DNA of 64,000 bases, taken from the NCBI GenBank assembly GCA_038064895.1, contig JBBTSA010000010.1, positions 182,616 to 246,615 on the forward strand, given 5' to 3'. Made by a program: the position numbers and the translations under genes. The notes under the pieces are model-generated. The model was not told the origin of the DNA and searched no databases. It saw only the letters and a program-made list of their open reading frames with translations. This DNA comes from Patescibacteria group bacterium (GTDB lineage: Bacteria; Patescibacteriota; Microgenomatia; Daviesbacterales; UBA10151). Each line of letters starts with the position of its first letter. Positions within the stretch are counted from its first letter, which is position 1. Positions 1,583 to 43,000 of the stretch are shown in pieces.

Positions 1583-2828
1583 AGGTAGAGTATATTATCA
1601 GAGCCATAAGTAGTAAAGCAGCTACTCCGGTTGAGGCCAAAATTATAATGAATAAACTTGGATGGAAAAACCAAATAATTATAATCTGAATAATTGCTGC
1701 GATGGCAGGAAAATAGACAACATTTATCCTACCGATAGAAAGATGTAGATTAATATAAAGGCAGCAGATAGTAAATATAGTAATAAAAAATCCATACCAT
1801 AATAAAAGTGGTGAAGCTTCTAAATAATCAGAATTTAGCATTCTGATTACAAATTCAGGCATGAGCCAGTAAATTATTAAAACTAAAAAAGAAATTAGAG
1901 AAGTTAATAATAAGCTTAAGAAAAATACTTTTTTATATTCTTTTCCTTTTGATTGTTTTTGTGAGATAAGCGGGAACATTACAGCACCAATAGGCGCTGT
2001 TCCAAAGAAAATGATTTTTCCTAAAGAAGAAATTACGGCATAAATTCCCGCATCATGGGGAGCAAAAAAATGCTTAATTAAAATAATATCTGTAGAATAC
2101 AAAGATGTAATTGAAATGGATTGAATGAGAACTGGGAATGAATAGTGAAGCATCTTTTTAACATTTGGAACTCTTAGTGATTTTTTTAAATAATTTTGAA
2201 TAAATAATCTGGAAAGGAAAAATCCAATTGACGAAGCAATTACTAAACCGGCTACCGCTCCGGCTACAGAGAAACCAATGTAGACGAAGAATATGCCTAA
2301 TAATAATTTAAAACTGCTTTCAGTAAAAAGACTAAAGATCATTTGAGGAAATTTTAAAAGTCCTTGAAGAACTGATTTATAAAGAAGCGCTGCCAAAGAA
2401 AATAAAAATGATACAGCAATCAAAATAATTATTAGTTTATTATCTATCTTTAAAAATGAAGAAATAAATGGAGAAAAAAGGGTAATCATTGTAAATATAA
2501 TCAGAGATAAAATAAAAACCCTAGCATTAAACCAGCTTACTAGATTTACTACTTCACTATCATTTTTTGCTGAGGAAACAAATTTAATAATTACGAGACT
2601 CAGTGAGGCAGGGGCAATTCCTAAAAGTCCAGTAAGTGATAGTAATGCTGCTAATTCCCCATAGCTGGGTGGTGTAAGGAATCTAATCATTACCAGATGA
2701 TATAAATAATTTAGAAAATTAACCAGATTACTACCAGCTATCATAACTATGCTCCCCGTAAGTAACGGATGAGAAAGTAAATTTAAAAATTCAAATTTAA
2801 AATTTAAAATTGTCCTCATGCTACCCAA
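1542..2828 (-). CDS. MOP-superfamily polysaccharide flippase (Wzx/Polysacc_synt-like).
   Basis: 428 aa, ~12 predicted TM helices, Wzx-like hydrophobic architecture. Lies within the glycosylation operon. Confidence 0.6.
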   Translation of the reverse strand: MGSMRTILNFKFEFLNLLSHPLLTGSIVMIAGSNLVNFLNYLYHLVMIRFLTPPSYGELAALLSLTGLLGIAPASLSLVIIKFVSSAKNDSEVVNLVSWFNARVFILSLIIFTMITLFSPFISSFLKIDNKLIIILIAVSFLFSLAALLYKSVLQGLLKFPQMIFSLFTESSFKLLLGIFFVYIGFSVAGAVAGLVIASSIGFFLSRLFIQNYLKKSLRVPNVKKMLHYSFPVLIQSISITSLYSTDIILIKHFFAPHDAGIYAVISSLGKIIFFGTAPIGAVMFPLISQKQSKGKEYKKVFFLSLLLTSLISFLVLIIYWLMPEFVIRMLNSDYLEASPLLLWYGFFITIFTICCLYINLHLSIGRINVVYFPAIAAIIQIIIIWFFHPSLFIIILASTGVAALLLMALIIYSTYGDKTYLGNSSGI

Positions 2829-7524: not shown

Positions 7525-9207
7525 TCATAGCATGATGTAGAAAGCTTCACATTTAGGATGGCGCAAGCCCCTTTTAAAAACACTTTCACATTTTTCTTCA
7601 GGGTTAGTCGTATAAGCTATAAGTTTAATCTTTCCATCTAAACCCTTTATTTCAAAAAGAAACTTTAAATTATGCTCCAAAACCTGGTCATAAGAGATAG
7701 CAAGCTCATCTCCCACTAATATTTTGTCCTCATAAATTTCTCTATCCCAAATAATTGGCCTTATTTCAAGATTGTCAAGCTTTGTCTCCATATCCAAAGA
7801 AATATTGTTATAGTAGTTATTTTTAATCTCTTTGCTTGTTTGCAGTTGGTATTTTTTGGGATCTATTTTTCCATAAAAGGGTACCCATATATGAGAAGGT
7901 GCAATTCTACTGGAATCGATAACAATTTTTTTATCCGGATACTGTTTTAATTCAGATACTAATTTTTGATACTCGTAACCATAGTTTCCTCCTCTTTCAT
8001 ATTTTAAGAGAATAAAATATGAGTTATATAAAATAACAAGGGAAGTTATTGGAATTATCATGATGAGAATTATCTGAATCAATCTCAAGGGTATTCTCTC
8101 AAGTAGTTCGCTAGTGCCAAGAGAAATTATGAGAGTTAAAACCCAAAAAAGAGGTAATGCCCTAAGTGAATAAAATGGATCTTTTGTTAAGGCAGCAGGT
8201 ATAGGACTTACGATAAGTAGTAACAGAAGGATTTTAAAGATAGGATCTGATTGATTTTTCAATAAAAACTTAATACCAAGCCATAACGGCACAACCATCC
8301 ATGCATAAAAGATGCTTAAATTGGGCATTGATCTGGCCTCTTGCGGATCAGGATCAAAAAATAAGCTTCTGGGTGAGAAGTATTCAAGATAATGACTACT
8401 AAATTCCCTTAAAATATATAAGGCTCTTCCAAATATGATGTATTTAAAGTTACTACCATGCTCATTATAATCATTTTCATTTAAATAATTAACTTGTTCT
8501 ATCCTTCTTGTAAATGCTTCTGATTGAATAAATGTTAGCTGGGGCAGTTGAGAAATTATAAAAAGAACAATCCCAATTAAAAGATATTTTTTATATCTTA
8601 AAAATCTATTTTTAAACACCCAAATTAGGAGTGGAAAAAAGATTAGTCCTAAGTATCTTTCTGTATGATAAGTATATCCAGAAAGTCCCCCTACCAAAAA
8701 TACTAATATGATCAGTTTTGGGTTTGATAAAGATTTAATAAACAAAAAGACATTTAAAATAAAAAGTGTCAAAGATAAACTTATCTCATGACCTCCCCTT
8801 CCAAAATATACAGCCCATGGAGAAATAGAAATCAGAAATACTACTAAAGTCTGTCCAGAAAAAGTTATTTTTTTAATTTGAAATGCTATAAGCAGGGATA
8901 AAATAATAAGTAAAATACTTGAAAATACAGAGATAAGGCGAATCGAAAATACGGTTGGCCCAAAAAATGCAACTGGAATAACAGAAAAGTAAGTATACAT
9001 TGGCAGAAGATATGTCCCCAAAGATCTAAAAGCTAATGGTAAGGTCTGTCCGTAACGATCCTTACCTGTCTGCAAAATAGAATAAGCATTATAACCATGT
9101 GATGCTTCATCTGGATTTAAGCCGGGTGGAATATCATTTAGGTGATAGAATCGTAAAAATATACCTATTGATAAAACTAATAATAAAATAAGAATTTTAA
9201 AGCCCAT
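7525..9207 (-). CDS. GT39/PMT/ArnT-like GT-C glycosyltransferase (array member).
   Basis: 'NPDEASHGYNAYSILQTGKDRYGQTLPLAFRS', multi-TM, 'YFSPRSLFFDPDPQEAR' module, ~170-aa C-terminal soluble domain. Confidence 0.7.
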   Translation of the reverse strand: MGFKILILLLVLSIGIFLRFYHLNDIPPGLNPDEASHGYNAYSILQTGKDRYGQTLPLAFRSLGTYLLPMYTYFSVIPVAFFGPTVFSIRLISVFSSILLIILSLLIAFQIKKITFSGQTLVVFLISISPWAVYFGRGGHEISLSLTLFILNVFLFIKSLSNPKLIILVFLVGGLSGYTYHTERYLGLIFFPLLIWVFKNRFLRYKKYLLIGIVLFIISQLPQLTFIQSEAFTRRIEQVNYLNENDYNEHGSNFKYIIFGRALYILREFSSHYLEYFSPRSLFFDPDPQEARSMPNLSIFYAWMVVPLWLGIKFLLKNQSDPIFKILLLLLIVSPIPAALTKDPFYSLRALPLFWVLTLIISLGTSELLERIPLRLIQIILIMIIPITSLVILYNSYFILLKYERGGNYGYEYQKLVSELKQYPDKKIVIDSSRIAPSHIWVPFYGKIDPKKYQLQTSKEIKNNYYNNISLDMETKLDNLEIRPIIWDREIYEDKILVGDELAISYDQVLEHNLKFLFEIKGLDGKIKLIAYTTNPEEKCESVFKRGLRHPKCEAFYIML

Positions 9208-9874
9208 TTTTTTCAGTTCTAAAAATTTTTAAAATACCCAAGGTTATCAGTAAATTAATTAATGGAAATAGAAGAACTGGTCCCAAAGTAAATGTTTGTT
9301 TTATAAATCCCGTAACAAGAAGTGCAAATAATAAGTAGAGAACTATCAAATATGAAGAAGATTTAATAAAATATAAAAGTCCAATTAAAAAGAATATAAG
9401 AAAAATTGCAGGATACATTGAAAATTCTTCAACTTTTTCTCTTTCCCTAGGATGATTAGAAAAAAAATATAGATTTGGACTTAAACTATTAAAAATATTG
9501 CTTGCATAAACATTAAAATATGGATAAATATCCTTATAAAAGCGCAATACAAACTTATTTTTAAAGAGTTTACCAAGACTAATTGCAAAATACCCATGTC
9601 TTTCATTTAACTGTTTTTGTTGATCCGGCCTAAGTTCTCTTAAATTGTTATCAAAACCTGCTACTAAAATCTTTACACTTGTCGAAAATAGAAGAAGTAA
9701 AGTAATAAGAAAAATTTTTTTATTTAACCTAGTAGCCGTCAAACTCGCCATTGTTAAACTTAACAGAACTAAAGTTAAGCCAAGAAACAGATCTATCTTT
9801 ATTATTTTCCAAATCCAAAAATTTGTTATAGCAACTGCAAGACTAATAAGAGTTACGAGAGAAATCCGATGCAT
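9197..9874 (-). CDS. Membrane protein consisting only of the C-terminal module of the GT39-like family. Possible gene fragment or split gene.
   Basis: 'NSLSPNLYFFSNHPREREKVEEFSMYPAIFLIFFLIGLLYF' aligns with the conserved 'HFSPQ(Y/F)LF..GD.NPR...(Y/F)...LIL(G)' block of neighbouring paralogs. It has no N-terminal DE-loop region. Confidence 0.45.
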   Translation of the reverse strand: MHRISLVTLISLAVAITNFWIWKIIKIDLFLGLTLVLLSLTMASLTATRLNKKIFLITLLLLFSTSVKILVAGFDNNLRELRPDQQKQLNERHGYFAISLGKLFKNKFVLRFYKDIYPYFNVYASNIFNSLSPNLYFFSNHPREREKVEEFSMYPAIFLIFFLIGLLYFIKSSSYLIVLYLLFALLVTGFIKQTFTLGPVLLFPLINLLITLGILKIFRTEKNGL

Positions 9875-20189: not shown

Positions 20190-22556
20190 ATGCTCAAAAA
20201 ATTTATCGCTTCTCCCTTTTTTGCACCTGCAACTCTGGTTTTAATAGTAATAGCCGTCTATCATCAATTTTTTATTTTTGGGAAAATTCCTTTTCCCGGA
20301 GACTTACTGGTTGTCAGTTACTCTCCCTGGTTTGACTATTATAAATTTCCTGTGCAAAATCCCTTAATATCTGATGTTTTTTCACAGTTCTTTCTTTGGA
20401 AATATTTAAGCATAGATAGCTTGAAAAACTGGCAATGGCCACTGTGGAATCCATACTCATTTACAGGTACACCTCTTTTGGCAACATATCATTCCGCATC
20501 TTTATACCCACTTAATATTCTACTCCTTCTGCCCAAATACCTTGGATGGGGATTCTTTATATTCTCTCAAACCCTCATAGGATTAATTGCTATGTATCTA
20601 TTGCTCTCGTTATGGGTAAGTTCGAAGCTGGCGAGACTCACCGGATCAATGATTTTTGCCCTGGGGGGACTGATGACAACTTGGCTGGAGTTGGGTACCG
20701 CCGTCCATGCCATAATCTGGTTACCATTTTCAATATACTCAATCGAGCTTTTTTGGGCCAGGTTTCAATTTAGATATCTTCTAATGTTAACCGGCTCTCA
20801 AGTATTCCTCGTCCTTGCCGGAAATGCCCAAATCTTAACCTATTCACTAATAATTCTTACCTTGTACATCTTTATCAACTGCCCTTATATAAATATAAAA
20901 AAGGTATCCGTCCGTTTTTTCCCACCGCTTATAGCTTTAGTTATTGGCCTACTCTTAACTTCAATCCAGTTACTACCAAGTCTTGATTTACTAAGTAAAT
21001 CAATTCGGCTTACAGAATCTTACATAGGAGAGTCTAACTTTGGATTATTACCGATTAATGAAAGTATAAGGTTTTTTGTGGCGGATTTCTTTGGAAACCC
21101 CGTCACCCGTAATTATTGGGGATTTTTAAATTATTCAGAGACAAGTGGATTCCTCGGTAGTTTAACCCTTCCCATTTTAATTTTTTCTTTTTTTTACTTA
21201 AAGAGAAGCAGGTTAATTATTTTCTTTCAGATACTATTTGCCTTATCCATTTTACTATTATTTAACAGCCCCCTATCACAAATGATTTATCAAACTAAAA
21301 TCCCCCTACTTACTTCATCTTATGCTTCCAGGATACTTGTTATCATTTCTTTCTCGGTTTCTATTTTGAGTGCTTTCTCGTTAAATCAATTATTAATTAC
21401 CCAAAATCAAGAAAATAAATTTTTAAAATCAACTATTTGGTCCTGGTCAATATTTGTCGGGATACTAATCGGATCTTTCTTAAGTTTTTTCCTATCCGGC
21501 TTTACTGTCCCTTTTAGGAATTCAATCCTCCCTGTATTATTAATATCTCTTTTTCTGGGGCTTTTCATGGTTATGAAAAAAATCAGGTTTAAATCTTACC
21601 GAGTTAGCAAAATCCACCTGATTCTTTTTATATTATTTATTTTTTTGGCTTTTGACCTAAGTAGATATTTTTTAAAATTCAATCCCTTTGTCTCAAACAA
21701 CCTGATATTTCCTAAAGTCCCAGCTATTGAGTTTTTACAAAAACAGCCGGGTCTTTTTAGAATAGGTAGGGAACATGCTGAAACTTTACCTCCTAATACT
21801 TGGATTGCATATAACCTGTACTCATACGAAGGGTATGATCCGATCTATTTAAACCAATATGGTAAATTTATGCATTTTTTAAACGGGGGAGATTTGAGAA
21901 CCGGTAATTCCAGCAGATACGCAGAAATTATATCTAATTATAGTTCTCCATATCTTGATGCAGCTAATAGCAAATTTTTTATTGCCACCCTTAAGGATAA
22001 GAATAATGATATTCCGGGTAAGTTGCTAAGTAAAAATGTTAAGGATACAAATTACAATTTGATATTTCAAGATGGTTCAGCAGCTATTTTAGAAAATCCC
22101 AATGCCTTAAACAGAGTTTATTTTGCCCACTCAATTATTACTGCACCACTACAAAGAATCGAAGATGTCATTATGGGGGATAAATCATTTGACCCCAAGG
22201 TAACAATAGCTTTGACAGATGATTTAAATATTAAAAATCCAACCGGGTCAGGTTCAGCAATCATAACATCCTACTTACCAAATGAGGTAAGAATCAAAAC
22301 CATGACTTCTCAAGAAGAAGTACTTGTACTGGCTGATCAATTTGATGAGGGATGGCATACTAAGATAGATGGAAATGATGCTAAAATTAGCAGAGCAAAT
22401 TTAATTTTTAGAGCTGTTAAAGTTCCGGCTGGCATCCATGAGGTAATAATGAACTACTATCCAACCTCTTTTGACTTGGGACTCAAGATATCGATAGCAT
22501 CAATTCTACTGGTAGGTTTAAGTGTTTTAATTGCAATAAAAGTTAGCAGATTTTAA
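20190..22556 (+). CDS. Large polytopic membrane protein, YfhO-like (putative lipid-linked glycosyltransferase).
   Basis: 788 aa. N-terminal 'PGDLLVVSYSPWFDYY...DVFSQFFLWKY' resembles the YfhO N-terminal Asp/aromatic region. ~13 TM helices plus a C-terminal extracytoplasmic domain and a final TM. Confidence 0.45.
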   Translation: MLKKFIASPFFAPATLVLIVIAVYHQFFIFGKIPFPGDLLVVSYSPWFDYYKFPVQNPLISDVFSQFFLWKYLSIDSLKNWQWPLWNPYSFTGTPLLATYHSASLYPLNILLLLPKYLGWGFFIFSQTLIGLIAMYLLLSLWVSSKLARLTGSMIFALGGLMTTWLELGTAVHAIIWLPFSIYSIELFWARFQFRYLLMLTGSQVFLVLAGNAQILTYSLIILTLYIFINCPYINIKKVSVRFFPPLIALVIGLLLTSIQLLPSLDLLSKSIRLTESYIGESNFGLLPINESIRFFVADFFGNPVTRNYWGFLNYSETSGFLGSLTLPILIFSFFYLKRSRLIIFFQILFALSILLLFNSPLSQMIYQTKIPLLTSSYASRILVIISFSVSILSAFSLNQLLITQNQENKFLKSTIWSWSIFVGILIGSFLSFFLSGFTVPFRNSILPVLLISLFLGLFMVMKKIRFKSYRVSKIHLILFILFIFLAFDLSRYFLKFNPFVSNNLIFPKVPAIEFLQKQPGLFRIGREHAETLPPNTWIAYNLYSYEGYDPIYLNQYGKFMHFLNGGDLRTGNSSRYAEIISNYSSPYLDAANSKFFIATLKDKNNDIPGKLLSKNVKDTNYNLIFQDGSAAILENPNALNRVYFAHSIITAPLQRIEDVIMGDKSFDPKVTIALTDDLNIKNPTGSGSAIITSYLPNEVRIKTMTSQEEVLVLADQFDEGWHTKIDGNDAKISRANLIFRAVKVPAGIHEVIMNYYPTSFDLGLKISIASILLVGLSVLIAIKVSRF

Positions 22557-23028
22557 TGGACTGAAACAATTAGAAAAGGGTAAATAAGTAGGGCCAAAGC
22601 AAAACTATAAAGTAAAAGAACACTACTTATTAAAAACATCAGCTTGCCCAATTTTTCTTTTTCAAGCTTTATAAATAAAAGTGCCAAAAAATTTATCAAT
22701 ATTAAACACAATACGTAAATATAAAAAGATCCAGCGGCAACTAAATAAGTAAACCAGAGCGAAAGACCAAAAAGTAAAGCTGGCAGATATCCCCACGATC
22801 CTTTAAAAAAATTTTTCCTATTAGCCAAATTAATAACAGGTTTGAAAAACCAAATATATAAATTGACCAGATCGGTAAGGTCATTGGAGACTCGAGAAGA
22901 TCTGAAAAAAATAAGGATTGGTTGCTAAAATGCAATGGATAGATTGTCCGATATACTAGGGCTGAAAATAGTAAACTCAAACAACAAATCAGCAATAATA
23001 TATAACTCTTGACAAAAAACTTATTCAC
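22553..23028 (-). pseudogene. Two overlapping small membrane ORFs (22741-23028 and 22553-22828). A 1-nt change in an A5T7 run would join them into one ~165-aa multipass membrane protein. Possible frameshifted gene, slippage site or sequencing error.
   Basis: In the 22741-23028 frame 'WLIGKIFLKDRGDICQLYFLV' overlays 'MANRKNFFKGSWGYLPALLFG' of the 22553-22828 frame over the same nucleotides. The homopolymer 'ggaaaaatttttttaaagg' lies at ~22800-22818. Confidence 0.35.
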
Positions 23029-24641
23029 TAGTACACTTTTTTAACAGTTAAAATTGGCCGTCCATCTTTACCTGTTATAATTTCGTAATTTTTAAGGTTC
23101 TCAATACTTCCAGCAGTATCTATAAATAGAACTGATCCGTCCAAATTTTCTATGAATTGATTTGTATCTGCCTGTGGAATATATCCAATATATATATTGT
23201 CGAACTTTTTAAATTTATAACTGCTTATCGTGGTGCTGTTTTGATTTTGAGAAATAACCGTTAAAGGCTCAATCTTACCATAAACAGGATAGGCAAATTC
23301 AATAGCATCAATTCTATCGGATAGAAAAACATATTTATATTTGTCTTTATTTTGCAGAGCATACTCTGATGCAACTTTCGCTGAATTTGACCAGAAACTA
23401 CTATATTCATTTGGGGCAAGAAAATATAATTTTTGGAGGAAAAAAGCAAATTGTATTGCAAACAGTAGACAAACTATATAAAATACCACTTTGTTTTTCA
23501 TCCTGATTACTGCCACCAAACCAAGAGCTGATAATAAAATTAAGAATGGTAACATAAAAGAACTTCTTAAAGCATGCGGCGAATCAACAATTGCTGTAGG
23601 AATCGGCGCTAAAATTATCCCAAGAAGTAGAAATAATATTGTCTTTTTTTGCTTTTGCCAAAAGGCAAAAATCCCTACCAGAATTAATATTGCTTCCACA
23701 AAATAAAGCTCGCCTATTGTAGCCATGTTGTGGCGTGGATTTCTATCTCCATGTAAAATTAAAAAATCCAAAGAAAAATTCTGAAGATAATTTTCTCCTA
23801 TCAGCTTTGTATATTCTACTGCCTTATTGTGAAAATACTTTAAAAAAGATTTTGGCAAATTAGTAATACTTCTTTCGAAATTTATTTTTTGTTCAATTGC
23901 ATCTTTTAGCTCAACTTTGGAAAAAATATTTATATGATAAAATCTAGTTTCTGAACCACCGATGAACGTTTGACTTATTGATAAAAATCCTAAGATCAAA
24001 AGCAAAAGTACTCCGATCGAAAAATATTTTTTGTCAAAGCTTAAGACTTTTTTTATAGATGTAAACCAAAAAATAAGTGGTAAAAACAAAGGCAGAATAA
24101 TTTTGTATGTAGGATAAGTATGCAGAGTTAAACCAAAACTTATTGCTGATAAAGTATAAAACAAAGGTTTCTCTTTTGCTTTAATGAAAAGATAGAAACC
24201 TAAAAGGGCAAGAAATAAAGCAAAATGAGCTTCAAAACCTCCCCTGGAGAGTGAAATATCCCAGGGAGAGAAAGCAGCAATAAAGCTGGCAGCTAAACCA
24301 ACATTTGTAGAGAATAATTTCCTACCTAAAAAGTACAAAAGAATAATTATTCCTATCCCAGAAAGAATGGAAAGTGCTCTTACACCTAAAGCCGTAGGGC
24401 CAAAAATTGCCATGAAGGGAATTGAGCCATACACATATCCTGCCGGCCTTCCCGCACCCATTTGGAATGTCAACGGAAATGAGTTACCAAGTTGATCCTG
24501 TCCAGTTTTTAAAAGTGAGTAAGAGTCTAAAACAATTGTTAACTCATCCCCATAAAGAGAAGCAGGACTGTTTTCAATATTTAGTATTCTTAAAAGAAAA
24601 CTTAATATTAATATTGATAAAACTATTAATCTCTCTTTCAT
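23028..24641 (-). CDS. GT39/PMT/ArnT-like GT-C glycosyltransferase.
   Basis: 'YGDELTIVLDSYSLLKTGQDQLGNSFPLTF', 'NFSLDFLILHGDRNPRHN' module. Confidence 0.65.
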   Translation of the reverse strand: MKERLIVLSILILSFLLRILNIENSPASLYGDELTIVLDSYSLLKTGQDQLGNSFPLTFQMGAGRPAGYVYGSIPFMAIFGPTALGVRALSILSGIGIIILLYFLGRKLFSTNVGLAASFIAAFSPWDISLSRGGFEAHFALFLALLGFYLFIKAKEKPLFYTLSAISFGLTLHTYPTYKIILPLFLPLIFWFTSIKKVLSFDKKYFSIGVLLLLILGFLSISQTFIGGSETRFYHINIFSKVELKDAIEQKINFERSITNLPKSFLKYFHNKAVEYTKLIGENYLQNFSLDFLILHGDRNPRHNMATIGELYFVEAILILVGIFAFWQKQKKTILFLLLGIILAPIPTAIVDSPHALRSSFMLPFLILLSALGLVAVIRMKNKVVFYIVCLLFAIQFAFFLQKLYFLAPNEYSSFWSNSAKVASEYALQNKDKYKYVFLSDRIDAIEFAYPVYGKIEPLTVISQNQNSTTISSYKFKKFDNIYIGYIPQADTNQFIENLDGSVLFIDTAGSIENLKNYEIITGKDGRPILTVKKVY

Positions 24642-26650
24642 AATACTTTGTAGATAATAACTTCACTATTCTCGAAAAAGATATCCAGGTTATTTTTATC
24701 TAAATCTAAGGCGCTTATTAGCTCATCTTTTGAAGTATAAATGTATCTTATATTTTCCTCTTTAAGAAACCTCTTATTAAAAAGGGGGTTACTTTGTTCA
24801 AAGAACTTTTTCATATTATTTAATCTTTCATCAGTAGGATAACCTGTGATAAGTGCTTGCTCCTCTGAAGTAAGATATGTCTTCCTACCTGTCAATGCCG
24901 GTATATAAGATGTAGGGTACCATGCATATATCGGTCTTGGTTGAATTATAAATTGATCCTTAAGATATTTATTAAATGGAACGGTTAGGACTACTTCATA
25001 TTCCATACTATTTTCCCTTAAAAACTTTAGAGCTTCCAATTGCTGATTACTGATTTTAGCAAGTGCGGTTTTCGAAGGACCATAGAATTCATTTAAATTA
25101 CCAATTACAGTTGGAACAGATAAAAAAACTATTAATGAAAAAAGTATCAGTCTCGGAAGTTTTCTCTTGATTAAAATAAGCAATTGATAAGCTGCTACTG
25201 CCCCATAAAATCCCGAAATTAGTAAAGAATATTGTATAAATTGAATGTTGTTATAAATAATTCCCTTTTGGACAAATAATATAACCATAAAAAATCCTGT
25301 TAACATTGACACTAAAAGCATTACACTAACAGGATTTTTTAAAAAACTCATTTTTAAACCATTCCTTACTAAGATATAAAATCCAAGAATTCTCATGCCT
25401 AGATTCCCGATTAAAAATATCAAAAGTGCAGTTATCTCTAACTGGATAACTCTTAAATAGGCGTTCCATGTACCTTTGGATAAATAATGTTGTCTTCGCA
25501 GTTCATGATCTATCCATCCTAGCTTATCAACAATCATAGTTCTTATAAACCACCAGGGTAAAAACATCAAAAATGATGAAGCTTGACTGGAAGTCATAGC
25601 CTTAAAAGTAAGTACATTTGAGATAACCAGTGCAAAAGCAAGTAAAATTATATGTACTTTTTTGTTAAAAATTAGATCTGAAATCGCCGCTGCCCCAATA
25701 CCTGTTAGCATAACAAATCCTCCTGAAACCTTAAAGCCTGTTAGCATTGAACCCAAAATGAATAAAATAATTAGCCAATAAAATTTCCTCTCCTTTAAGT
25801 AAAATAGAAGGCTTAAAAGAAATGTCGTAAGAAAGACGTGCGCAACTGCATGAGGGGGGTTACCAAGAAGGGTATTTTCTTGGGATGCCCAAAAGACTGT
25901 TTCTCCTCCAAATAGGTTACCGTCTCTTAGCCATGTTACAATATATCCGAAACTACCCACAAAATAGGTAAAAAATACCCCAAAGTACCCGATTTTTATA
26001 TTATTTTTCCACTTTGTAACAAAAGCAAAGACACTTGCGCCTATTAAGAATGAGAAAATTACCGGGAAAAATCTAAAATAGAGATCTAGAGATGAAAAGT
26101 AGGGAAAAATTCTTGCAAATTCCCCCATTAGCACATCAACAAGATAATGGTAGTTATATAACTTTTCTCCTGCAAAGGTAGGATTATTAGGAGGTAAGCT
26201 TTTTTTTATTTCCCCCATTAAACTAATATGCCATATGCCGTCATGCCCTTGTGAACTCCAAAAAAGTAATCCCTCTTTATACAATAAACCGCTTGGAAAA
26301 TTAATAAAGCCTTGAGTTAGAATACCCAAAACAATTAGTATCAAAAGCAATTTATCTTTAATAAATACTTTCCAAGGTTTCAGAATTTCAAGTTTATATT
26401 TTGCAAACACATATAGTCCATAAAAAATAAAAATAGGTAGCATTAACCATCTAATATTTAGAAGAGAGAAGATTATTGCAAAACCTACAAAAAAAACAAT
26501 TCCCAATGAGATGGAAAGGACTACTGTCTCTTGATCTTTAAGTATTTCCTTCTTCCTTGCAATCATTCCAAATCCCGGTAAGTATAAAACAAATAAAGAA
26601 AGTGCGATAAAAATTAAAAAGTTAAAAAATAGCTGAATAAATGTGATCAT
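24638..26650 (-). CDS. Polytopic membrane protein, 'HDG(I/V)WH' family (670 aa). Putative GT-C-like glycosyltransferase or polymerase of unknown family.
   Basis: 'SSQGHDGIWHISLMGEIKKSLPPNNPTFAGEKLYNYHYLVD'. Paralogous to the C-terminal 650 aa of 26647-30129 and to the partial gene at 1-779. Shared C-terminal tail 'NIRYIYTSKDEL...EVIIYKV'. Confidence 0.5.
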   Translation of the reverse strand: MITFIQLFFNFLIFIALSLFVLYLPGFGMIARKKEILKDQETVVLSISLGIVFFVGFAIIFSLLNIRWLMLPIFIFYGLYVFAKYKLEILKPWKVFIKDKLLLILIVLGILTQGFINFPSGLLYKEGLLFWSSQGHDGIWHISLMGEIKKSLPPNNPTFAGEKLYNYHYLVDVLMGEFARIFPYFSSLDLYFRFFPVIFSFLIGASVFAFVTKWKNNIKIGYFGVFFTYFVGSFGYIVTWLRDGNLFGGETVFWASQENTLLGNPPHAVAHVFLTTFLLSLLFYLKERKFYWLIILFILGSMLTGFKVSGGFVMLTGIGAAAISDLIFNKKVHIILLAFALVISNVLTFKAMTSSQASSFLMFLPWWFIRTMIVDKLGWIDHELRRQHYLSKGTWNAYLRVIQLEITALLIFLIGNLGMRILGFYILVRNGLKMSFLKNPVSVMLLVSMLTGFFMVILFVQKGIIYNNIQFIQYSLLISGFYGAVAAYQLLILIKRKLPRLILFSLIVFLSVPTVIGNLNEFYGPSKTALAKISNQQLEALKFLRENSMEYEVVLTVPFNKYLKDQFIIQPRPIYAWYPTSYIPALTGRKTYLTSEEQALITGYPTDERLNNMKKFFEQSNPLFNKRFLKEENIRYIYTSKDELISALDLDKNNLDIFFENSEVIIYKVL

Positions 26651-29600
26651 TGCTCTACTACTTTATAAATAACTACTTCTTCATTTTCAAATATGTTTTT
26701 TACCAATTTTTCCTTTTCTAATGCTTTTACTTGTTCTATAGCTCCTATATTAAAGATTTTTAATAGATAAATGTATCTTATATTATTTTTTTCCAAAAAA
26801 TTAAACTTTCGGAAATCTAAAATTTCGAAAAAATTTTCAGAAGCAACTATTCTTTTTTTATAATCTGTCAGAAGTATTTGATTCTGCGGCTCATCTTCAA
26901 CAAAAACACCCTTTTTTGACAAAGCTGAAACATAAGCTGTTGAATCATAGATAAAAAGATTGAAGGGCTCCGGAAATATCTCACGAAGTCTTTTATCGTA
27001 TGGATAAGTCAAAACTACTCCTTCATCCTGATTTGATAAAAACTTTAGAGCCTCTATTTCTTTAGAGCTTATATACGCATGAGGTAGAGTGTGAAAATAG
27101 CTACTTGCTGTAGCCAAAGAATTTATAGGAGTAAGTATAAAAACTATCGCAACCAGTATTGGCACTAAAGTTTTAGGCAATCTAAAAATAAAGTGGGTAA
27201 TTACTAAACCTGAAAAAATTGAGCTAGTGTATAAAAGATAATAGAAAAACTGGATGGTATTCCAGGGATTGCCCGACTGAATAAATAAAATCGGTATCAA
27301 ACCGGAAAGAAACGAAAAGATTAAAATAAAAAACAAGGGTGTATCGGATACAATACTCCTTAGTTTAAAAAGTGATAACAAACCAAATACTCTAAAACCC
27401 AAATTTCCCGCTATAAAAATCAAAAGACCTAAAGTGTCTGCCAAAAAAAACTTTAACCATTGACCTAAAGCAGAAGCTGTTGTCCTTGCTATAGAAAGCC
27501 TTACCCATCCCACTCTATCCGGCGAATCAATCATTGAGTGTATAAACCAAAATGGCGCAAAAATCATAACCGCATTTAAGACTTGAAAGTTTGATAAGAA
27601 TAACCAAGCGGATATAGCACTACTTACTATAAAGATTATTAGATAACGCAAATCGGATCTTTTAAAAATTTCAAAAAAAGCTACAACAAGTAGAGATCCT
27701 AAAACTAAAACAGCTCCGTATGCTTTAAATGAAATGAGGCTTCCCGCTAAAACTATAGCCAAAACTATTAAGGATTTAGCTTTTGATTTATATAAAGACA
27801 ATAAAACATGAAAGAGGGTGATTATAATTATCAAGGAAATTGCAAATGGTGGGTTTAAGTTAAATGATATTGCTTGATTTACCCAAAAAGCAGATTCTCC
27901 ACCCAAACCTCTCCCTTTCATAAACTCTACAATCCAGCCAAAACTTCCTGCAAAATATACAAAGAAAAGTGTAAAGATCGCAGTAACTTTCGTTTTTAAA
28001 ACACCAATTCTATCTTTGAATAACCTCCATACAAGATAATATGTGCCAATTCCCACTCCGATGGAAAATAAAATGGGGTAAAATCTAAATAATAAATCTT
28101 CTACGGGTATTTTAGATATAAAATGGGTTGCCGCAATCAACAAATCATAAAAGTAGTGATAATTTTCTAAAGGCATCCCTGCGAAAATCGGGTTTTGGGG
28201 CGGTATACTTTTTGATATTTGATTCACAAGCGCTATATGCCATACTCCGTCATGAGTGTTGGGTCCCCAAAATCCCATTCCGTATCCATAATATAAACCA
28301 CTCCTAAAAGTAGGAATTATTTGAAAAACAGTTCCGCCCACAATTATTAAAAAAGAAGCTATATAAAACCAATCTTGAGATTTTAGAATCTTGAGTTTGA
28401 ATAAGTTATAACTTCTTAAGCGAATAAACAAAATGGCACAAATCAAAATATAAATTAAGCTAAATGATTGTAATTTTAAAAAGCCTAATATATAAAATAC
28501 CCAGCTAAAAATTACTATACCTGAAACTAAAGATACAAACAGTCGTAAAAAGGTGGGTGAGGACCTCTCAAGAATTCTATTTGTGAAAACAATACCCGGC
28601 ATAATGATTGTTAAAAGTAAAAAGACCAAAAAGCGAAAAATTTTAGATACAGTGCCCTCTACAGACCACTTAAAGAAATCTGCCTCGACTTTTGGTCGCA
28701 AATCCCTAATATGTTGAATATTTTTTTCAGTTGCCTCAATAATGACACTATCAATAGAACGGGATTTTCCATCAATACTTATATCTCTTGGCAGAAATTC
28801 TATTCTTCTTTCATTCGAACCCTCATTTATATAACTTACTACGTAACTGTTGTTTTCTTTAACTACTTTTAGCCGGGAAATTTTACCTTCGTCAATCACC
28901 CACTTGTGCCCATAAGTTACGTTATCCAATACTCTTGTTGCAAAAGTTGCAAAATTTACTTCGGAGCATGCTTTAAGGTAGCAGAATTCTTCTTCTTCTC
29001 CGACATACTGACGGATATCTCTAAATATACTTCCATCACTACTAATAAATAACCCTGCCCGATAATATGGATTCATAAACCAAATTGCTTTTTTCCCCGT
29101 ACTCAAAGGGTCATCCGCTATAATTAGATGTTGGGGTGAAAGGTCAGGGAAGGATTGAGAATACCAAGAAGCAAAATCCTTCATTGTAACAATCCTAAGC
29201 TGACCTAGGCGTTGTTTGTCTACAAGCACTTCTATTTGTTTCCTGTATTCAAAACCGTATTTTTCAAAGGAATAGGAATTTTCAAGACCTACGCTAAGGT
29301 GACTAAAACTTCCGAATTGCCCCTTTGTATAAATATCTACTAAGGATCGGAAATAACCGGTGTTAAGCTTATGATAATCCAAATAGTCATTGGATTGCAC
29401 ACTAAAAGTACTTTCAAAAACGCCGTTGCCGTATCCGTTTACGGGATCGCGCGGCGCCCACTGCATCATTACAAGGGGTAATTTATTTTCTTGGGACTTT
29501 GCAGGATGCAAAACATTATTTTTTGCAGGGTAATAAGGTGTGGACCAAAACTGCCCCCAAATTTGGTAATCATCTGTTGTGTATTGATCTGAAACTTCTA

Positions 29601-30129
29601 AAGAGGCTGTGATTCCATATTTTTTTTGTATATATTCAAGTGAGAAGCTATCAATCCACCAGGCTCCAACTGATTTCGGATAAAAGTTAAAAACTTCCCT
29701 AAACTTTTCAAATGCACTATCAATAAGTTTAAGTCTTTCCTCTCTTTCATATCCGCTTAAAAATGCGCTACCGGCAGCATGCCAATTACTGCTTTTATGA
29801 TACTTAACACCGGCTGCTTCGGCCCAAGAAGGTGTAACCTCCAAAAATAATCCCTTCTCGTGATCCGGCAGAGACTTTAGGATACTTGTAACTTCATCCA
29901 CTTTTAGTGCATCAAAACGGATAAGCCAGGTTGCAGGAAGATCAAATTCCTTAAGTATTGTTAATTGTCCCGATACGGCAGTAGCTATTTTTTGTCCTTG
30001 CTCTTGCCAAAAATCTTCACCTCTTATAGGGTTTACAACCGTTACAAAAGAATTTTCCAGAGCTTGAGCAGAACCAAACCCCCAAAAGTAGAGAATAAGA
30101 AATAAAATCAAACCGATCAATTTACTCAT
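26647..30129 (-). CDS. 1160-aa fusion: signal peptide, ~490-aa extracytoplasmic soluble domain, then a ~650-aa 'HDG-W-H' polytopic membrane domain.
   Basis: N-terminal hydrophobic signal 'MSKLIGLILFLILYFWGFGSAQA'. Soluble domain 'LIRFDALKVDE...GAWWIDSFSLEYIQKKYGITASLEV' (a possible deacetylase or glycoside-hydrolase-like barrel, tentative). Membrane domain 'GFWGPNTHDGVWHIALVNQISKSIPPQNPIFAGMPLENYHYFYD'. Confidence 0.5.
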   Translation of the reverse strand: MSKLIGLILFLILYFWGFGSAQALENSFVTVVNPIRGEDFWQEQGQKIATAVSGQLTILKEFDLPATWLIRFDALKVDEVTSILKSLPDHEKGLFLEVTPSWAEAAGVKYHKSSNWHAAGSAFLSGYEREERLKLIDSAFEKFREVFNFYPKSVGAWWIDSFSLEYIQKKYGITASLEVSDQYTTDDYQIWGQFWSTPYYPAKNNVLHPAKSQENKLPLVMMQWAPRDPVNGYGNGVFESTFSVQSNDYLDYHKLNTGYFRSLVDIYTKGQFGSFSHLSVGLENSYSFEKYGFEYRKQIEVLVDKQRLGQLRIVTMKDFASWYSQSFPDLSPQHLIIADDPLSTGKKAIWFMNPYYRAGLFISSDGSIFRDIRQYVGEEEEFCYLKACSEVNFATFATRVLDNVTYGHKWVIDEGKISRLKVVKENNSYVVSYINEGSNERRIEFLPRDISIDGKSRSIDSVIIEATEKNIQHIRDLRPKVEADFFKWSVEGTVSKIFRFLVFLLLTIIMPGIVFTNRILERSSPTFLRLFVSLVSGIVIFSWVFYILGFLKLQSFSLIYILICAILFIRLRSYNLFKLKILKSQDWFYIASFLIIVGGTVFQIIPTFRSGLYYGYGMGFWGPNTHDGVWHIALVNQISKSIPPQNPIFAGMPLENYHYFYDLLIAATHFISKIPVEDLLFRFYPILFSIGVGIGTYYLVWRLFKDRIGVLKTKVTAIFTLFFVYFAGSFGWIVEFMKGRGLGGESAFWVNQAISFNLNPPFAISLIIIITLFHVLLSLYKSKAKSLIVLAIVLAGSLISFKAYGAVLVLGSLLVVAFFEIFKRSDLRYLIIFIVSSAISAWLFLSNFQVLNAVMIFAPFWFIHSMIDSPDRVGWVRLSIARTTASALGQWLKFFLADTLGLLIFIAGNLGFRVFGLLSLFKLRSIVSDTPLFFILIFSFLSGLIPILFIQSGNPWNTIQFFYYLLYTSSIFSGLVITHFIFRLPKTLVPILVAIVFILTPINSLATASSYFHTLPHAYISSKEIEALKFLSNQDEGVVLTYPYDKRLREIFPEPFNLFIYDSTAYVSALSKKGVFVEDEPQNQILLTDYKKRIVASENFFEILDFRKFNFLEKNNIRYIYLLKIFNIGAIEQVKALEKEKLVKNIFENEEVVIYKVVEQ

Positions 30130-31582
30130 TTTTAAACTCCGATAATACTCTCTTAAAATCTCTTAATATTGATCCTCCGACTAAAAGAAAGATTAACAAA
30201 CTGTAAGATATGATACCTAAAAAAATCAGAATGAAAATGGAAACTACCGAAACGGGAATAGTTTCGCGTACAAAAAGCAAAATACCTCCCATTAAAATTG
30301 AAGCAACCAGTGGTTTTCCGGCACTCCCAAATAAACTTATACGTACAAACTTTTTGGAAATTCCCATTGCCACAACCGATGTTAGCCCAACTATTGTAAA
30401 ACCCAAAGCTGCACCGTTTACACCAAAGAAAAAGGCTAAAGGCGGCACCAAAAGCCAAGTAAGAAAAGTCCACATTATCATTAGCCTAAAAGTTATATTA
30501 ATTTTCCCGATTGCATTTAGCATATTTGTCAAAGGAGTAGTTACTGCCGCAAAGGGAACACTTATACCAAGTATGGTTATAGCAAACAGTGCCGGCTGCC
30601 ATTTCTCATATCTTGGGATAACTTGAGTAAGCATTGGTACAAGTGTTAAAAGTCCGATGAGTGTTGGAAAAACCAAAAGGCTAATAAAGAATATAGACCG
30701 TGATAAAAGATATGAAAGCTCTGCTTTTTGATCCTGTATTCTGGAAAAGGCAGGAAAGCTTACTTTGATAATTTGATCCATAAAAAAACGCAAAGGTGCT
30801 TGCGCCCATCTTTGAGCCCATCCTAAAAGGCCCATCCCCGAAGCACCAAGAATCCCCCCTAAAACAATATTAAGACCGTCATCTTTAATCAAAGCCAAAA
30901 ATGTATTAGCCTGGTAAGGAACACCGAAGGTGAAAAGTCGCCGAATAGAACTAAGGTCCATAGAAAAACCAACTTTCCATGGCTGAATCATGTACATTAA
31001 GGTTGCGCCAATCATCCCTCTTGCTAAAACTGCAATTGTAAAGGAAGTAACGCCAAATCCCTGCCATGCAAGATAGACGGCCGTTACATTAAAAATTATG
31101 CTTTCCGCAATTTGAGGAATGATAAGTTTTGCAAAATCAATTTTTCTCTCCAAAAGGATTGACGGAATAGTTTTTAAAGAGGATAAGAAAAAAGAAAATC
31201 CTAGGGCATAAAGTAACCACATAGATTCCTGTGAAAGGTTATAAAAACGTCCGATTGCAGGTGATACTAAAAAAAGCACCAGAAGAATAGATAGGACTAG
31301 TGCTTGCTGGATTGTAAATGTCGTCTTTAATTCATTTTCGGAAATTTGTCCTTTTTTCTGAATTAGTGCTGCTGCAAGTCCGATATCGGAAAAGTATGCC
31401 AAAAAATTAATCACTGCAGAAACAATCCAAAATACCCCGTATTGTGTAACACCCAAGAAAATTGTAAGTATAAAATCTCCTGCCCTGTTTGTAAGTTGCA
31501 GAAAAAAAGTTCTACCTGTTAGAGCGACAATGCTTTTGACAGTACGCTTTTTGACTACATCAAGAGTTATTTCTTCATTCAT
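30122..31582 (-). CDS. MOP-superfamily flippase (Wzx/Polysacc_synt family).
   Basis: 486 aa, ~12-14 TM helices, typical Polysacc_synt N-terminal region. Confidence 0.6.
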   Translation of the reverse strand: MNEEITLDVVKKRTVKSIVALTGRTFFLQLTNRAGDFILTIFLGVTQYGVFWIVSAVINFLAYFSDIGLAAALIQKKGQISENELKTTFTIQQALVLSILLVLFLVSPAIGRFYNLSQESMWLLYALGFSFFLSSLKTIPSILLERKIDFAKLIIPQIAESIIFNVTAVYLAWQGFGVTSFTIAVLARGMIGATLMYMIQPWKVGFSMDLSSIRRLFTFGVPYQANTFLALIKDDGLNIVLGGILGASGMGLLGWAQRWAQAPLRFFMDQIIKVSFPAFSRIQDQKAELSYLLSRSIFFISLLVFPTLIGLLTLVPMLTQVIPRYEKWQPALFAITILGISVPFAAVTTPLTNMLNAIGKINITFRLMIMWTFLTWLLVPPLAFFFGVNGAALGFTIVGLTSVVAMGISKKFVRISLFGSAGKPLVASILMGGILLFVRETIPVSVVSIFILIFLGIISYSLLIFLLVGGSILRDFKRVLSEFKNE

Positions 31583-40855: not shown

Positions 40856-43000
40856 TCAGTTTTTAACTTTTAATTCTTCAGGATTATGTATCAATTTGTA
40901 AATTCTTACTCCATTTACTTCCCACTCCTTTTCAACTATTGCCCATCCAAAGTGGGAAATTTCCTGTTTAGGATGACCTACAGGGTTGCAAACAGGATCC
41001 TCACAAACAACAAAAAGCTGATCTGTTTTTGTAAAAGGTAATTGCTGTGGTTTATGTCCAAACTCATCCAAATAAAACTGGTAAGACGGATCATAATTTC
41101 TTTCTGCTAGTAAAGCAAAATTAAAGGGTCTATACTCCGATTGTTCAATGATAAACTTTGCAACATCCTTGGCTCTTCCAAGTTGATTATTTGGAGGATT
41201 TTTAAGAGGACTCTTTTCAAGATTAAGAAAAATAAGAGTTATGATTAGAAGTCCTAAAATAAGAGTTTTAAATTTTTTTGATATTTTAAGAGTTGCCAAT
41301 GAGCCAAAAAGAAGAAAGGGCACAGGATTTAAAAATCCCAAATAATGATCGTAGATGTCCTTTTGGTAAAAAGAAACTCCTAGAAGTCCTACAATAAGCC
41401 ATACCCCCAAAGCAAATGTTGGCCAGCTTTTTCTGAAAAGGGCTAAAAGTATTAGAATTGATAGAATTAAAGCAAGCTGCATATTTTCCCCAGCCATATA
41501 TCTTCCTATTAAGTTTTCCGAAAAAATTTGAGGGATCTTTTTAAAATTTTCAAATATGTTCCCTGAAACTGCGTTTGAAGTTGTAAAAAACTCCCTTATT
41601 GCTCTGTAATTTAAAAAATTGTGTTTAAGGTCAAACATTAAAAGTGGCGACATTACAACTAAAAATACAACTACTGCTCCTACAGTCCCCTGCCAAAAAT
41701 ATCTCCCCTTTTTTGTAATAAATTCAAAAATCCAAAAAATCCCAAGTATCGGAAGCAAAATTAATGCAAGGTAATGCATTTGTAAAGCCGCAGCGGCGGA
41801 TGCTCCTGTTAAAATTAACCACCTCGAATTCCCTGTGGAATGAGCTTTATAAAAACCTAATACCGCAAGTAATGCAAAAAAGGGAGTGGGATTAGGATTC
41901 CAGGAAAAATTTGAATAATTTATTGTCACGGGTGATATTGCGTAAAAAAAACTTGCAATAAGTCCGCTCATCCTTCCAAACCAAACTTTCCCAAAGTAGT
42001 ATATTAGAAATACACAAGTAACTCCAATTAAAGCATTCATTACGGAAGCCGAAACGGGGTTGAGGTTTGTTAGTACCATGGGTATAAACATCATGTAATA
42101 ATAGAGAGGCCCCAAATAAATATTTCCTACGGATGATGGGGGACCAATGGCTGGAAAATTTTTACCCTTCACCATATCTTGAACAATCAAAACATCTCTG
42201 CCCTCATCACCTAAAAATAGCATGTACTCATCTATTCTATAAAGACGAAAGAAAGCGGCCAGAACTAAAACACCTATTAGAAGTAAAAAAAGAAATTTTT
42301 GATCCTTCAGTTTCCACCAAAGCCTTAAAAGATCAACATACGAGCGGATAATTACTGTAAGAGTTGCACCGGTTGGCTTTCCTGAAAGTCTTGGATAATG
42401 ACTAACCCCAACTTGCGCAATTTTAAATCCGGCCTTTTTTACCTTTATTGCAAGTTCCGCATTTATCATTGCCCCACGGGTTGACTCAAGATGAGGAATT
42501 TTCTCTAAAACATTTTTTTTAATCATCTTAAAACCGCAGTCAACATCTCTAAATGTTAATCCAAAGAATATAAAAAGTGAGGCCTTCCAGCCTTTTTTAA
42601 ATAAAATCCGCAAATATGGATCCTGCCTTTTAATGCGGTATCCCAGGATAAGATCATGCTCTTCAATTTTTTCTAAAAATTTTTCAACTTCCGCAAAATC
42701 AAACTGTCTGTCTCCATCCGTATAACAAACAGTGTCGTATTTTGCATTATAAAACCCCGATTTTAATGCTTCTCCATATCCTAAATTTTTCTCATGATGA
42801 ATTACTTTAATCTTGGGATTGTCTTCGGAAAGCCTATCTGCTATTTGTCCTGTTTTATCTGATGAACCATCATCAATAAGCAAAATCTCATAATCTATTT
42901 TTAAATTATTTAATACAGAAATTGCTTTTTCTACACTTTGCTGAACGTTTCCTTCCTCATTATATAGAGGGAAAAATACAGATAGATTTTTAACTGGCAT
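40856..43000 (-). CDS. Bifunctional fusion: N-terminal GT2 polyprenyl-phosphate sugar synthase (~230 aa) plus C-terminal ArnT/PMT-like GT-C membrane glycosyltransferase (~480 aa).
   Basis: N-terminus 'LSVFFPLYNEEGNV...LLIDDGSSDKT...YTDGDRQ...FRDVDCGFKMI'. C-terminus multi-TM 'LFLGDEGRDVLIVQDMV...YYFGKVWFGRMSGLIASFFYAISPVTINYS', homologous to 48909-50414 and 61763-63238. Confidence 0.65.
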   Translation of the reverse strand: MPVKNLSVFFPLYNEEGNVQQSVEKAISVLNNLKIDYEILLIDDGSSDKTGQIADRLSEDNPKIKVIHHEKNLGYGEALKSGFYNAKYDTVCYTDGDRQFDFAEVEKFLEKIEEHDLILGYRIKRQDPYLRILFKKGWKASLFIFFGLTFRDVDCGFKMIKKNVLEKIPHLESTRGAMINAELAIKVKKAGFKIAQVGVSHYPRLSGKPTGATLTVIIRSYVDLLRLWWKLKDQKFLFLLLIGVLVLAAFFRLYRIDEYMLFLGDEGRDVLIVQDMVKGKNFPAIGPPSSVGNIYLGPLYYYMMFIPMVLTNLNPVSASVMNALIGVTCVFLIYYFGKVWFGRMSGLIASFFYAISPVTINYSNFSWNPNPTPFFALLAVLGFYKAHSTGNSRWLILTGASAAAALQMHYLALILLPILGIFWIFEFITKKGRYFWQGTVGAVVVFLVVMSPLLMFDLKHNFLNYRAIREFFTTSNAVSGNIFENFKKIPQIFSENLIGRYMAGENMQLALILSILILLALFRKSWPTFALGVWLIVGLLGVSFYQKDIYDHYLGFLNPVPFLLFGSLATLKISKKFKTLILGLLIITLIFLNLEKSPLKNPPNNQLGRAKDVAKFIIEQSEYRPFNFALLAERNYDPSYQFYLDEFGHKPQQLPFTKTDQLFVVCEDPVCNPVGHPKQEISHFGWAIVEKEWEVNGVRIYKLIHNPEELKVKN

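Follow-up and report, generated by a model that had tools for sequence, protein, structure and literature searches.

A predicted GT-C membrane family in a Patescibacteria glycan locus, with one copy fused to a divergent DUF3863-type ectodomain

Two adjacent genes in a 64,000-nucleotide stretch of DNA from a Daviesbacteria-like Patescibacteria group bacterium (assembly GCA_038064895.1, contig JBBTSA010000010.1, positions 182,616 to 246,615; hereafter the window) raise the question of what a large secreted domain is doing at the front of one copy of a membrane protein whose sister copy goes without it. The reading that we prefer, and to which we would give roughly one chance in two, is that the two proteins are paired glycosyltransferases of the GT-C class, similar in fold to DPY19 and the oligosaccharyltransferases (OSTs), that, coupled to a flippase, transfer sugars onto a glycopolymer of the wall or surface, with the extracytoplasmic domain (ectodomain) acting on the glycan.

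The longer open reading frame (ORF) lies at 26647-30129 on the minus strand, encodes 1160 residues, and is recorded as MEK7616941.1/AAB414_02715 under the name 'hypothetical protein'; the shorter, at 24638-26650 on the same strand, encodes 670 residues (AAB414_02710), and the two overlap by 4 nucleotides (ATGA). Both are present as an earlier sequence-only reading of the window had described them, and they are paralogs, as residues 498-1158 of the long protein align by BLASTP with the entire 670-residue protein at 31% identity over ~660 residues (E 2e-71). We refer to them as the fusion and the plain paralog. A third, divergent member of the family is represented at 1-779 (minus strand) by its N-terminal 259 residues and continues past the edge of the window; this fragment matches both full-length copies at 31-32% identity (BLASTP, E 2e-23 and 1e-20), and a family hidden Markov model (HMM) run against the ORFs of the window matched exactly these three. 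A homolog search with the partial third copy returned no match, the query itself included, and a metagenome scan with it likewise returned none.

The family had been recognized by the motif HDG(I/V)WH...NYHY and a common C-terminal tail, both of which were ascribed to all three copies. Regular-expression searches place HDGVWH at residue 626 of the fusion and HDGIWH at residue 136 of the plain paralog, find the proline-rich element across the copies in the variants PPQNPIFAG, PPNNPTFAG and PPQNPAFSG, and find NYHY, NIRYIY and EV(V/I)IYKV in both full-length copies. In the third copy FDSTWH and GYHY stand in place of HDGxWH and NYHY, so that what the first motif has in common to all three reduces to D, W and H, and the shared tail is visible in two copies only because the C-terminus of the third lies beyond the window edge.

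The fusion consists of a signal peptide, a DUF3863-like ectodomain, a GT-C membrane core and a C-terminal dome. The putative signal peptide spans residues 1-23 (30061-30129), a hydrophobic segment MSKLIGLILFLILYFWGFGSAQA with an AXA-type site ahead of LE, the cleavage being suggested by the sequence pattern. A predicted seven-stranded beta/alpha barrel of the DUF3863 type follows at approximately residues 24-330 (29140-30060; AlphaFold2 model, Foldseek and profile search), then a beta-sandwich subdomain like that of the structure 3LM3 at approximately residues 331-458 (28756-29139), modeled as strands only over 334-458. A linker helix (residues 459-492, 28654-28755; helical over 459-484, with low model confidence at its end) leads from the ectodomain to the first membrane helix. 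The transmembrane core covers residues 493-1010 (27100-28653), as delimited by the paralog alignment and matched by the A1 HMM at E 9e-111, and its first large outside loop carries HDGVWH at residues 626-631 and PPQNPIFAG...NYHY at residues 643-659 (28153-28254). The last segment, residues 1011-1160 (26647-27099), is modeled as an extracytoplasmic alpha/beta dome that includes the NIRYIY...EVVIYKV tail. In the plain paralog the core occupies residues 1-523 (25082-26650), with HDGIWH at 26228-26245, and the dome residues 524-670 (24638-25081). All of these features are encoded on the minus strand.

Before any function is entertained it must be considered whether the long ORF is an artefact, two separate genes run together by a frameshift or assembly error, or whether the shared motifs are a chance likeness among hydrophobic proteins. 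Frame errors do occur in this gene: in GCA_039738315.1 the ortholog is split into products of 756 and 406 residues by a frameshift in a run of eleven G residues (G11; locus L001, 10200-10240, proteins P0001 and P0002), and in one contig elsewhere the upstream flippase is fused as well. However, at least 10 cluster representatives of 1059-1166 residues align end to end with the fusion at 38-51% identity, uninterrupted fusions number 25 among species-representative genomes, and the E-values between the copies (2e-71 and 1e-20) speak against chance. The split relative is the exception, and reading through its frameshift restores the same 1160-residue architecture. We have as such rejected an artefactual origin, which we regard as scarcely credible; the fusion is genuine. 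The frameshift in the G11 run itself could reflect a sequencing error in the homopolymer or, alternatively, phase variation of a surface-glycan gene by strand slippage; the protein from a second assembly has the identical truncated C-terminus, and a tract of this type is absent from the equivalent site of the window gene.

The family at large is sizeable. Clustering at 50% gives 1937 representatives with a match to either part of the long protein or to both; for 759 the match reaches E <=1e-30. Homologs of ~670 residues number 372, with their length conserved. Sequence comparison gives little purchase on what the membrane module is. When 73 family members were compared with Pfam only noise was returned (VKGC_lumenal_dom was best at 0.02, followed by DUF6541 at 0.021); STT3, Dpy19, PMT and PMT_2 are absent among these at E <=0.1, and the same families are absent at E <=10 for the members that UniRef names RgtA/B/C/D-like, the automatic label 'Glycosyltransferase RgtA/B/C/D-like' being carried by a few relatives. 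A profile of the membrane family gave only a chance match in the PDB (3bma, E 1.4). The DUF2298 or 'YYY' family, considered on account of NYHY, found no Pfam support and was dropped.

Structure prediction is considerably more informative. The AlphaFold model of the 670-residue protein, built from 73 sequences, has a mean predicted local distance difference test score (pLDDT) of 91.9 and a predicted template modeling score of 0.92, and the first 22 Foldseek matches to it are all GT-C enzymes at probability 1.00: DPY19 at E 7.8e-9, AglB at 2e-8, the yeast and human OSTs at 5e-8 to 2e-6 and PglB at 1e-7, with AftA (4e-4), ArnT (7e-4), AftD and Pmt4 lower. After these come the C-terminal globular domain of AglB and then transporters, the first match outside the GT-C class having a probability of <=0.15. 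As had been proposed from the sequence, then, the module is GT-C-like, and on the strength of the model we assign it a GT-C glycosyltransferase fold of the DPY19/STT3-PglB-AglB type for which neither Pfam nor NCBIfam holds a model. The published description of DPY19 lists two long luminal loops, EL1 and EL5, a variable module like that of STT3, and at the C-terminus an alpha/beta 'luminal dome' common to the OST, Emb and AftD enzymes (PMC10154233). Since that layout is the same, the common C-terminal tail of the present family is most simply such a dome; in the model it comprises residues 524-670, with five strands and several helices, and it resembles the AglB globular domain 3vu0 weakly (E 0.13-0.19; template modeling (TM) score 0.51-0.53).

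The closest folds, DPY19 and STT3/PglB/AglB, belong to the protein-modifying classes of GT-C, and it could thus be supposed that the pair glycosylates secreted, S-layer or pilus proteins in the manner of an OST or PMT enzyme, the dome and ectodomain together forming a groove for the acceptor peptide. The weak likeness of the C-terminal domain to 3vu0 would fit, and a Wzx flippase beside an OST would recall the logic of PglK and PglB. We nevertheless consider protein glycosylation very unlikely. Regular-expression searches find neither WWD/WWE nor W[WFY]D[YWF]G in either protein, so that the OST motif WWD(Y/W)G is lacking, and DxD and ExD are likewise missing from both membrane cores; the Pfam models for STT3, PMT and Dpy19 do not match; and a barrel of the hydrolase/deacetylase type has no obvious role in peptide recognition.

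The membrane topology follows in good part from the leader. The hydrophobic leader of the long protein ends in SAQA, followed by LE, and homologs have equivalent leaders, which argues that the soluble domain of ~490 residues is exported, as the sequence-only reading had supposed in placing a signal peptide and soluble domain before the membrane module; if so, the first helix of that module must enter from the outer face and end in the cytoplasm. In the plain paralog no charged residue precedes helix 1 and RKKEILK follows it, which points to the same orientation, and the predicted cytoplasmic loops (82-99, 287-289, 329-333, 429-437 and 494-500 in the numbering of the 670-residue protein) are all rich in K and R. 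By signal peptide, positive-inside rule and conserved loops, the soluble domain is thus predicted to be extracytoplasmic. The model, with ~4 helices ahead of the first large outside loop, ~14 in total and two long outside loops, is consistent with both the N- and the C-terminus being outside.

The residues that the family conserves are predicted to lie on this same face. In the numbering of the plain paralog, the polar residues invariant across the family fall in predicted outside loops (D137, H141, N166-Y167-H168, E250, W254, Q257, W367, Q461, N467 and Q470), and D189, R193 and K307 are at helix ends facing outside. Among fused and plain members, D137 (D627 in the fusion) is kept in 28 of 29, R193/R682, K307/K802 and H168/H658 are near-invariant, and D627, H631 and N656-Y657-H658 are at least 93% conserved. 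Every pan-family residue is kept in both paralogs of the window, so both look catalytically competent. Judged by its position, where the first interfacial helix of the loop begins, D627/D137 would be the best candidate for the catalytic base of a GT-C enzyme.

The ectodomain was modeled from residues 1-492 of the fusion, for which there are 217 homologs; a 65-sequence alignment gave an AlphaFold2 model of pLDDT 92.6. The barrel resembling a deacetylase or glycoside hydrolase that had been suspected in this part of the protein is borne out, as the top Foldseek match is 3LM3, the 'putative glycoside hydrolase/deacetylase' BDI_3119 (E 1.2e-15, TM 0.58/0.65, 414 alignment columns of a 434-residue target), and a family profile finds 3lm3_A in the PDB at E 4.2e-7, in an aligned block where Q182 and D186 are conserved. 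Next come HP0310 (E 6e-9), PuuE (2e-7), the CE4 enzymes PdaC and PgdA, and then GH57 and GH38 enzymes; for the deacetylase matches the TM score normalized to the query is 0.28-0.40. The Pfam family DUF3863 (PF12979) matches 12 of the 65 homologs weakly, at best with E 1.7e-4, and the window protein not at all at E <=0.1. We therefore describe the ectodomain, as modeled, as a divergent DUF3863 barrel with beta-sandwich within the glycoside-hydrolase/deacetylase superfamily, its kinship with CE4 being at superfamily level only. The fold found at the N-terminus is thus of a carbohydrate-active kind, and the membrane module matches no family other than glycosyltransferases; neither of the two outcomes that would have spoken against the sequence-only reading was observed.

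What chemistry the barrel might perform is suggested by its conserved residues. R36, E97, W116, D160, Q182, D186, W224, R227, D248 and E283 are invariant, with D73 and H117 near-invariant, and the invariant residues lie at the C-terminal end of one barrel strand after another, the position of the active site in beta/alpha barrels. The CE4 motifs TFDD and H(S/T)xxH are absent from residues 1-490 by regular-expression search, H117 being the sole near-invariant histidine. Hydrolysis based on carboxylates, metal-independent amidohydrolysis and tight binding of a glycan are all possible activities for such a domain. No literature on the biology of DUF3863 or 3LM3 was found.

The setting of the pair is also conserved. 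Upstream of the fusion, at 30122-31582 (minus strand), is a Wzx-like flippase of the MOP type (Polysacc_synt_3, Pfam E 5e-51) whose stop overlaps the start of the fusion by 8 nucleotides; downstream, at 23028-24641 (minus strand), a PMT_2-type GT-C gene overlaps the plain paralog by 4 nucleotides. Synteny was counted over 43 species-representative loci that carry an ortholog of the plain paralog: the fusion is directly upstream of it in 27 of the 43, with a flippase homolog before the fusion in 22 of those; in approximately nine, two plain copies stand side by side, and in seven a single copy lies between PMT_2 genes. The full order of PTPS_related, Wzx-like flippase, fusion, plain paralog, PMT_2, GT2, GT2 and GT4 recurs in five loci. 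Scoring with lineage-specific HMMs separates two paralog lineages. Fusion and plain paralog thus constitute a conserved adjacent pair, translationally coupled to the flippase upstream and the PMT_2 gene downstream.

The family is seen only in genomes of the Patescibacteria/Microgenomates type. Many of the species-representative genomes that carry this Daviesbacteria-type operon go under the titles 'uncultured Gammaproteobacteria', 'Bathyarchaeia archaeon', 'Clostridia' or 'Spirochaetia' (L011, L014, L015, L017-L021, L026, L036 and L041, among others); such titles are probably submitter mislabels of Patescibacteria bins as opposed to true occurrences elsewhere.

Given a conserved flippase, two outward-facing cores and an exported barrel, our preferred reading can be set out as a sequence of steps. 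Undecaprenyl (di)phosphate would be loaded with a sugar or oligosaccharide by cytoplasmic GT2 and GT4 enzymes, and the Wzx-like flippase, presumably co-transcribed, would move the lipid-linked sugar outward. The GT-C core may then bind the lipid-phosphate donor through R682, K802, H631 and H658 and, with D627 (D137 in the paralog) serving as base, pass the glycan to an acceptor outside the cytoplasm; this acceptor would most likely be a glycopolymer of the wall or surface that is still growing. Fusion and plain paralog could work as a hetero-oligomer or in consecutive steps, and the DUF3863 ectodomain, positioned immediately over the membrane, might trim, deacetylate or grip the same polymer. 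The donor, the acceptor, the chemistry of the ectodomain, true bifunctionality of the fusion, and a role as polymerase as opposed to transferase are all points that we infer from models and gene context.

The rest of the window is rich in enzymes that could feed such a process or a simpler one. The window as a whole holds ~21 genes of the GT-C type, exceptionally dense over 1-50414 (11 PMT_2, four PTPS_related, one YfhO, one PIG-V-like, one PIG-M/GT87-like and the three of the focal family), together with two Wzx-like flippases, at least five small GT2 genes, a GT4 gene, a GT2-GtrA protein, a protein at 40856-43000 in which GT2 is fused to PMT_2, and rmlBCD-like (rhamnose-synthesis) genes with further sugar-nucleotide enzymes. 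In the simpler process the core would add one undecaprenyl-phosphate sugar as a side branch, and the ectodomain would only recognize the acceptor polymer. GtrC, ArnT, YfhO and the PMT enzymes are precedents for the addition of single sugars in this way. The small GT2 genes of the window are DPM1/GtrB-like, and these, with the GT2-GtrA and GT2-PMT_2 fusions, are what such a process would use. DPY19, moreover, the best fold match, takes a polyprenyl-phosphate monosaccharide as donor and needs no metal (PMC10154233). That the ectodomain is without the metal motifs of CE4 would also suit a recognition module. Against this, the coupled and conserved neighbor is a flippase of the MOP/Wzx type, a type that moves diphosphate-linked oligosaccharides, and not of the GtrA type; OST-type enzymes score almost equal to DPY19 in Foldseek; and invariant carboxylates as dense as those of the barrel are unusual for a pure binding module. 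On balance we find single-sugar decoration rather unlikely, though likelier than the other rivals to the glycopolymer transfer that we favor.

Several observations weigh against that favored transfer. Searches of Pfam, NCBIfam and PDB sequences with the focal membrane module returned nothing (0 Pfam families at E <=0.1), and hhalign comparison with the PMT_2 and PTPS_related paralogs of the window gave probabilities of 4% and 0.4%, that is, no relationship. Some genomes have cores of the fusion lineage without the ectodomain, which argues that the ectodomain is an optional accessory and not essential to the activity of the core; with the Asp-His-His motifs of CE4 absent, a classical metal-dependent deacetylase is in any case unlikely and the ectodomain could be non-catalytic. 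D627 and its partners are equated with known catalytic residues by position and not by superposition. Last, no priming phosphoglycosyltransferase of the WecA/WbaP type is present in the window, and the small GT2 and GT2-GtrA proteins would make undecaprenyl-phosphate monosaccharides, with which a transfer of single sugars is equally compatible.

A more ambitious proposal is that fusion and paralog form a two-subunit, OST/DPY19-like and flippase-coupled machine that polymerizes undecaprenyl-diphosphate repeat units, or transfers them en bloc to the wall, in place of a Wzy polymerase or ligase. No recognisable Wzy is found in the window. Structures of the WaaL, Wzy or RodA type are likewise missing among the Foldseek matches, and Wzy_C gave no Pfam match, although a polymerase-like role would still be compatible with these results. 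We think such a machine quite unlikely; were it real, it would represent a new route of surface-polymer assembly in monoderm ultra-small bacteria, with the DUF3863 barrel editing the nascent chain, and would supply the first function for DUF3863.

Comparison with known systems helps to define what is and is not unusual about the glycopolymer-directed pair that we prefer. With DPY19 and STT3/PglB/AglB the family would share a core of many helices, a pair of long outside loops, an acidic residue conserved in the first large loop outside, and an outward-facing alpha/beta domain at the C-terminus, the fold matches spanning E 8e-9 to 2e-6. It differs from them in that there is no detectable sequence similarity, that WWDYG and DxD are absent, that its N-terminus is predicted to be outside with ~4 helices before the catalytic loop as compared to one, and that it occurs as an adjacent pair of paralogs, one of which has an enzyme-like ectodomain at its N-terminus. 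For paralogous GT-C heterodimers there is precedent in EmbA-EmbB and Pmt1-Pmt2. Large extracytoplasmic accessory domains on GT-C enzymes are also known from AftD, EmbA/B/C and PMT (AftA and AftD being fold matches as well), where they are carbohydrate-binding or MIR modules situated at the C-terminus or in loops; here, in contrast, the accessory domain is an N-terminal barrel of the hydrolase/deacetylase type.

The ectodomain itself shares its barrel and beta-sandwich fold with BDI_3119 of Parabacteroides distasonis (3LM3), but identity is 16%, and BDI_3119 is a soluble, stand-alone protein while the present domain is membrane-tethered and fused to a GT-C core; in other relatives the DUF3863 domain is followed by a two-helix hairpin and dome in place of that core, again unlike BDI_3119. 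Its barrel superfamily is also that of the CE4/NodB and PuuE/HP0310 deacetylases. PgaB and PelA, enzymes that process exopolysaccharides, are examples of outward-facing polymer modifiers encoded inside the biosynthetic locus. The present ectodomain, however, has neither TFDD nor H(S/T)xxH, and the known examples are separate proteins that are not fused to a transferase.

Most DUF3863 homologs are in fact stand-alone proteins of ~670 residues, comprising a leader, barrel and sandwich, the two-helix hairpin and a C-terminal domain, and as such look like the fusion minus its GT-C core. An HMM of these proteins matches the last helix and dome of the fusion (independent E-value 1.2e-7), while BLAST of dome tails against the stand-alone tails is not significant (E >0.4); kinship of the two domes is accordingly likely but not proven from these sequence comparisons. 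At L054 (5973-10031) a stand-alone protein with DUF3863, hairpin and dome stands after a flippase of 421 residues and a GT2 of 268 residues. In the window (1-2828) it is the third family copy that holds that slot, directly downstream of a GT2 of 268 residues (776-1582) and a second Wzx-like flippase of 428 residues (1542-2828), which together cover 776-2828 on the minus strand.

Two other arrangements suggest that the joining of this ectodomain to GT-C cores happened on more than one occasion. In P0372 (918 residues) DUF3863 is C-terminal to a weakly PMT_2-like core (E 9.6e-5, below the Pfam cut-off), and in P0361 (726 residues) it lies behind another unidentified N-terminal region. P0243 (1639 residues, on a Logan contig of 8.8 kb) has a Wzx-like flippase, 55.6% identical to that encoded at 30122-31582 of the window, fused in frame to a whole DUF3863-GT-C protein. 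Such a protein would be topologically workable, as the leader would serve as an extra helix; given that the window genes overlap by 8 nucleotides, this single contig could equally be the artefact of a 1-nucleotide indel.

A few features of the window may be recorded for their own sake. Four ORFs have no Pfam match: 7525-9207 (560 residues), 9197-9874 (225), 50786-52012 (408) and 61763-63238 (491), of which the first two, among GT-C genes, could be further unrecognised envelope-glycan proteins. At 22553-23028 on the minus strand two small overlapping hydrophobic ORFs, of 91 and 95 residues, are found between the PMT_2 gene and a YfhO gene (20190-22556, plus strand); the latter is divergently oriented, and the long minus-strand operon appears to be interrupted at this spot.

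The sequence-only reading had called a bifunctional enzyme of this kind new. That description must be tempered by the fact that orthologs have long been in the databases as hypothetical proteins, one full-length cluster including EKD90470.1 from the ACD groundwater genomes. The literature that we searched, on GT-C enzymes in Patescibacteria, on GT-C/deacetylase fusions and on glycosyltransferases of Daviesbacteria, yielded nothing relevant, and no GT-C enzyme with an N-terminal hydrolase/deacetylase-type barrel, paired with a plain paralog and a flippase, was found in it.

Nothing established is overturned by these observations, in that GT-C enzymes with accessory domains outside the membrane and polymer-modifying enzymes in glycan loci are both familiar. 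In the Patescibacteria, or Candidate Phyla Radiation (CPR), which are uncultured episymbionts, the cell surface mediates attachment to the host, yet very little is known of envelope chemistry; here the conserved core of a locus rich in GT-C genes is occupied by two genes whose family is recognized by no profile library. A DPY19/OST-like assignment would offer concrete handles on the assembly of the CPR envelope, namely candidate catalytic residues, a soluble ectodomain suitable for expression and a conserved flippase partner, and it would give a first functional context to DUF3863, a family with a crystal structure since 2010 and no known role.

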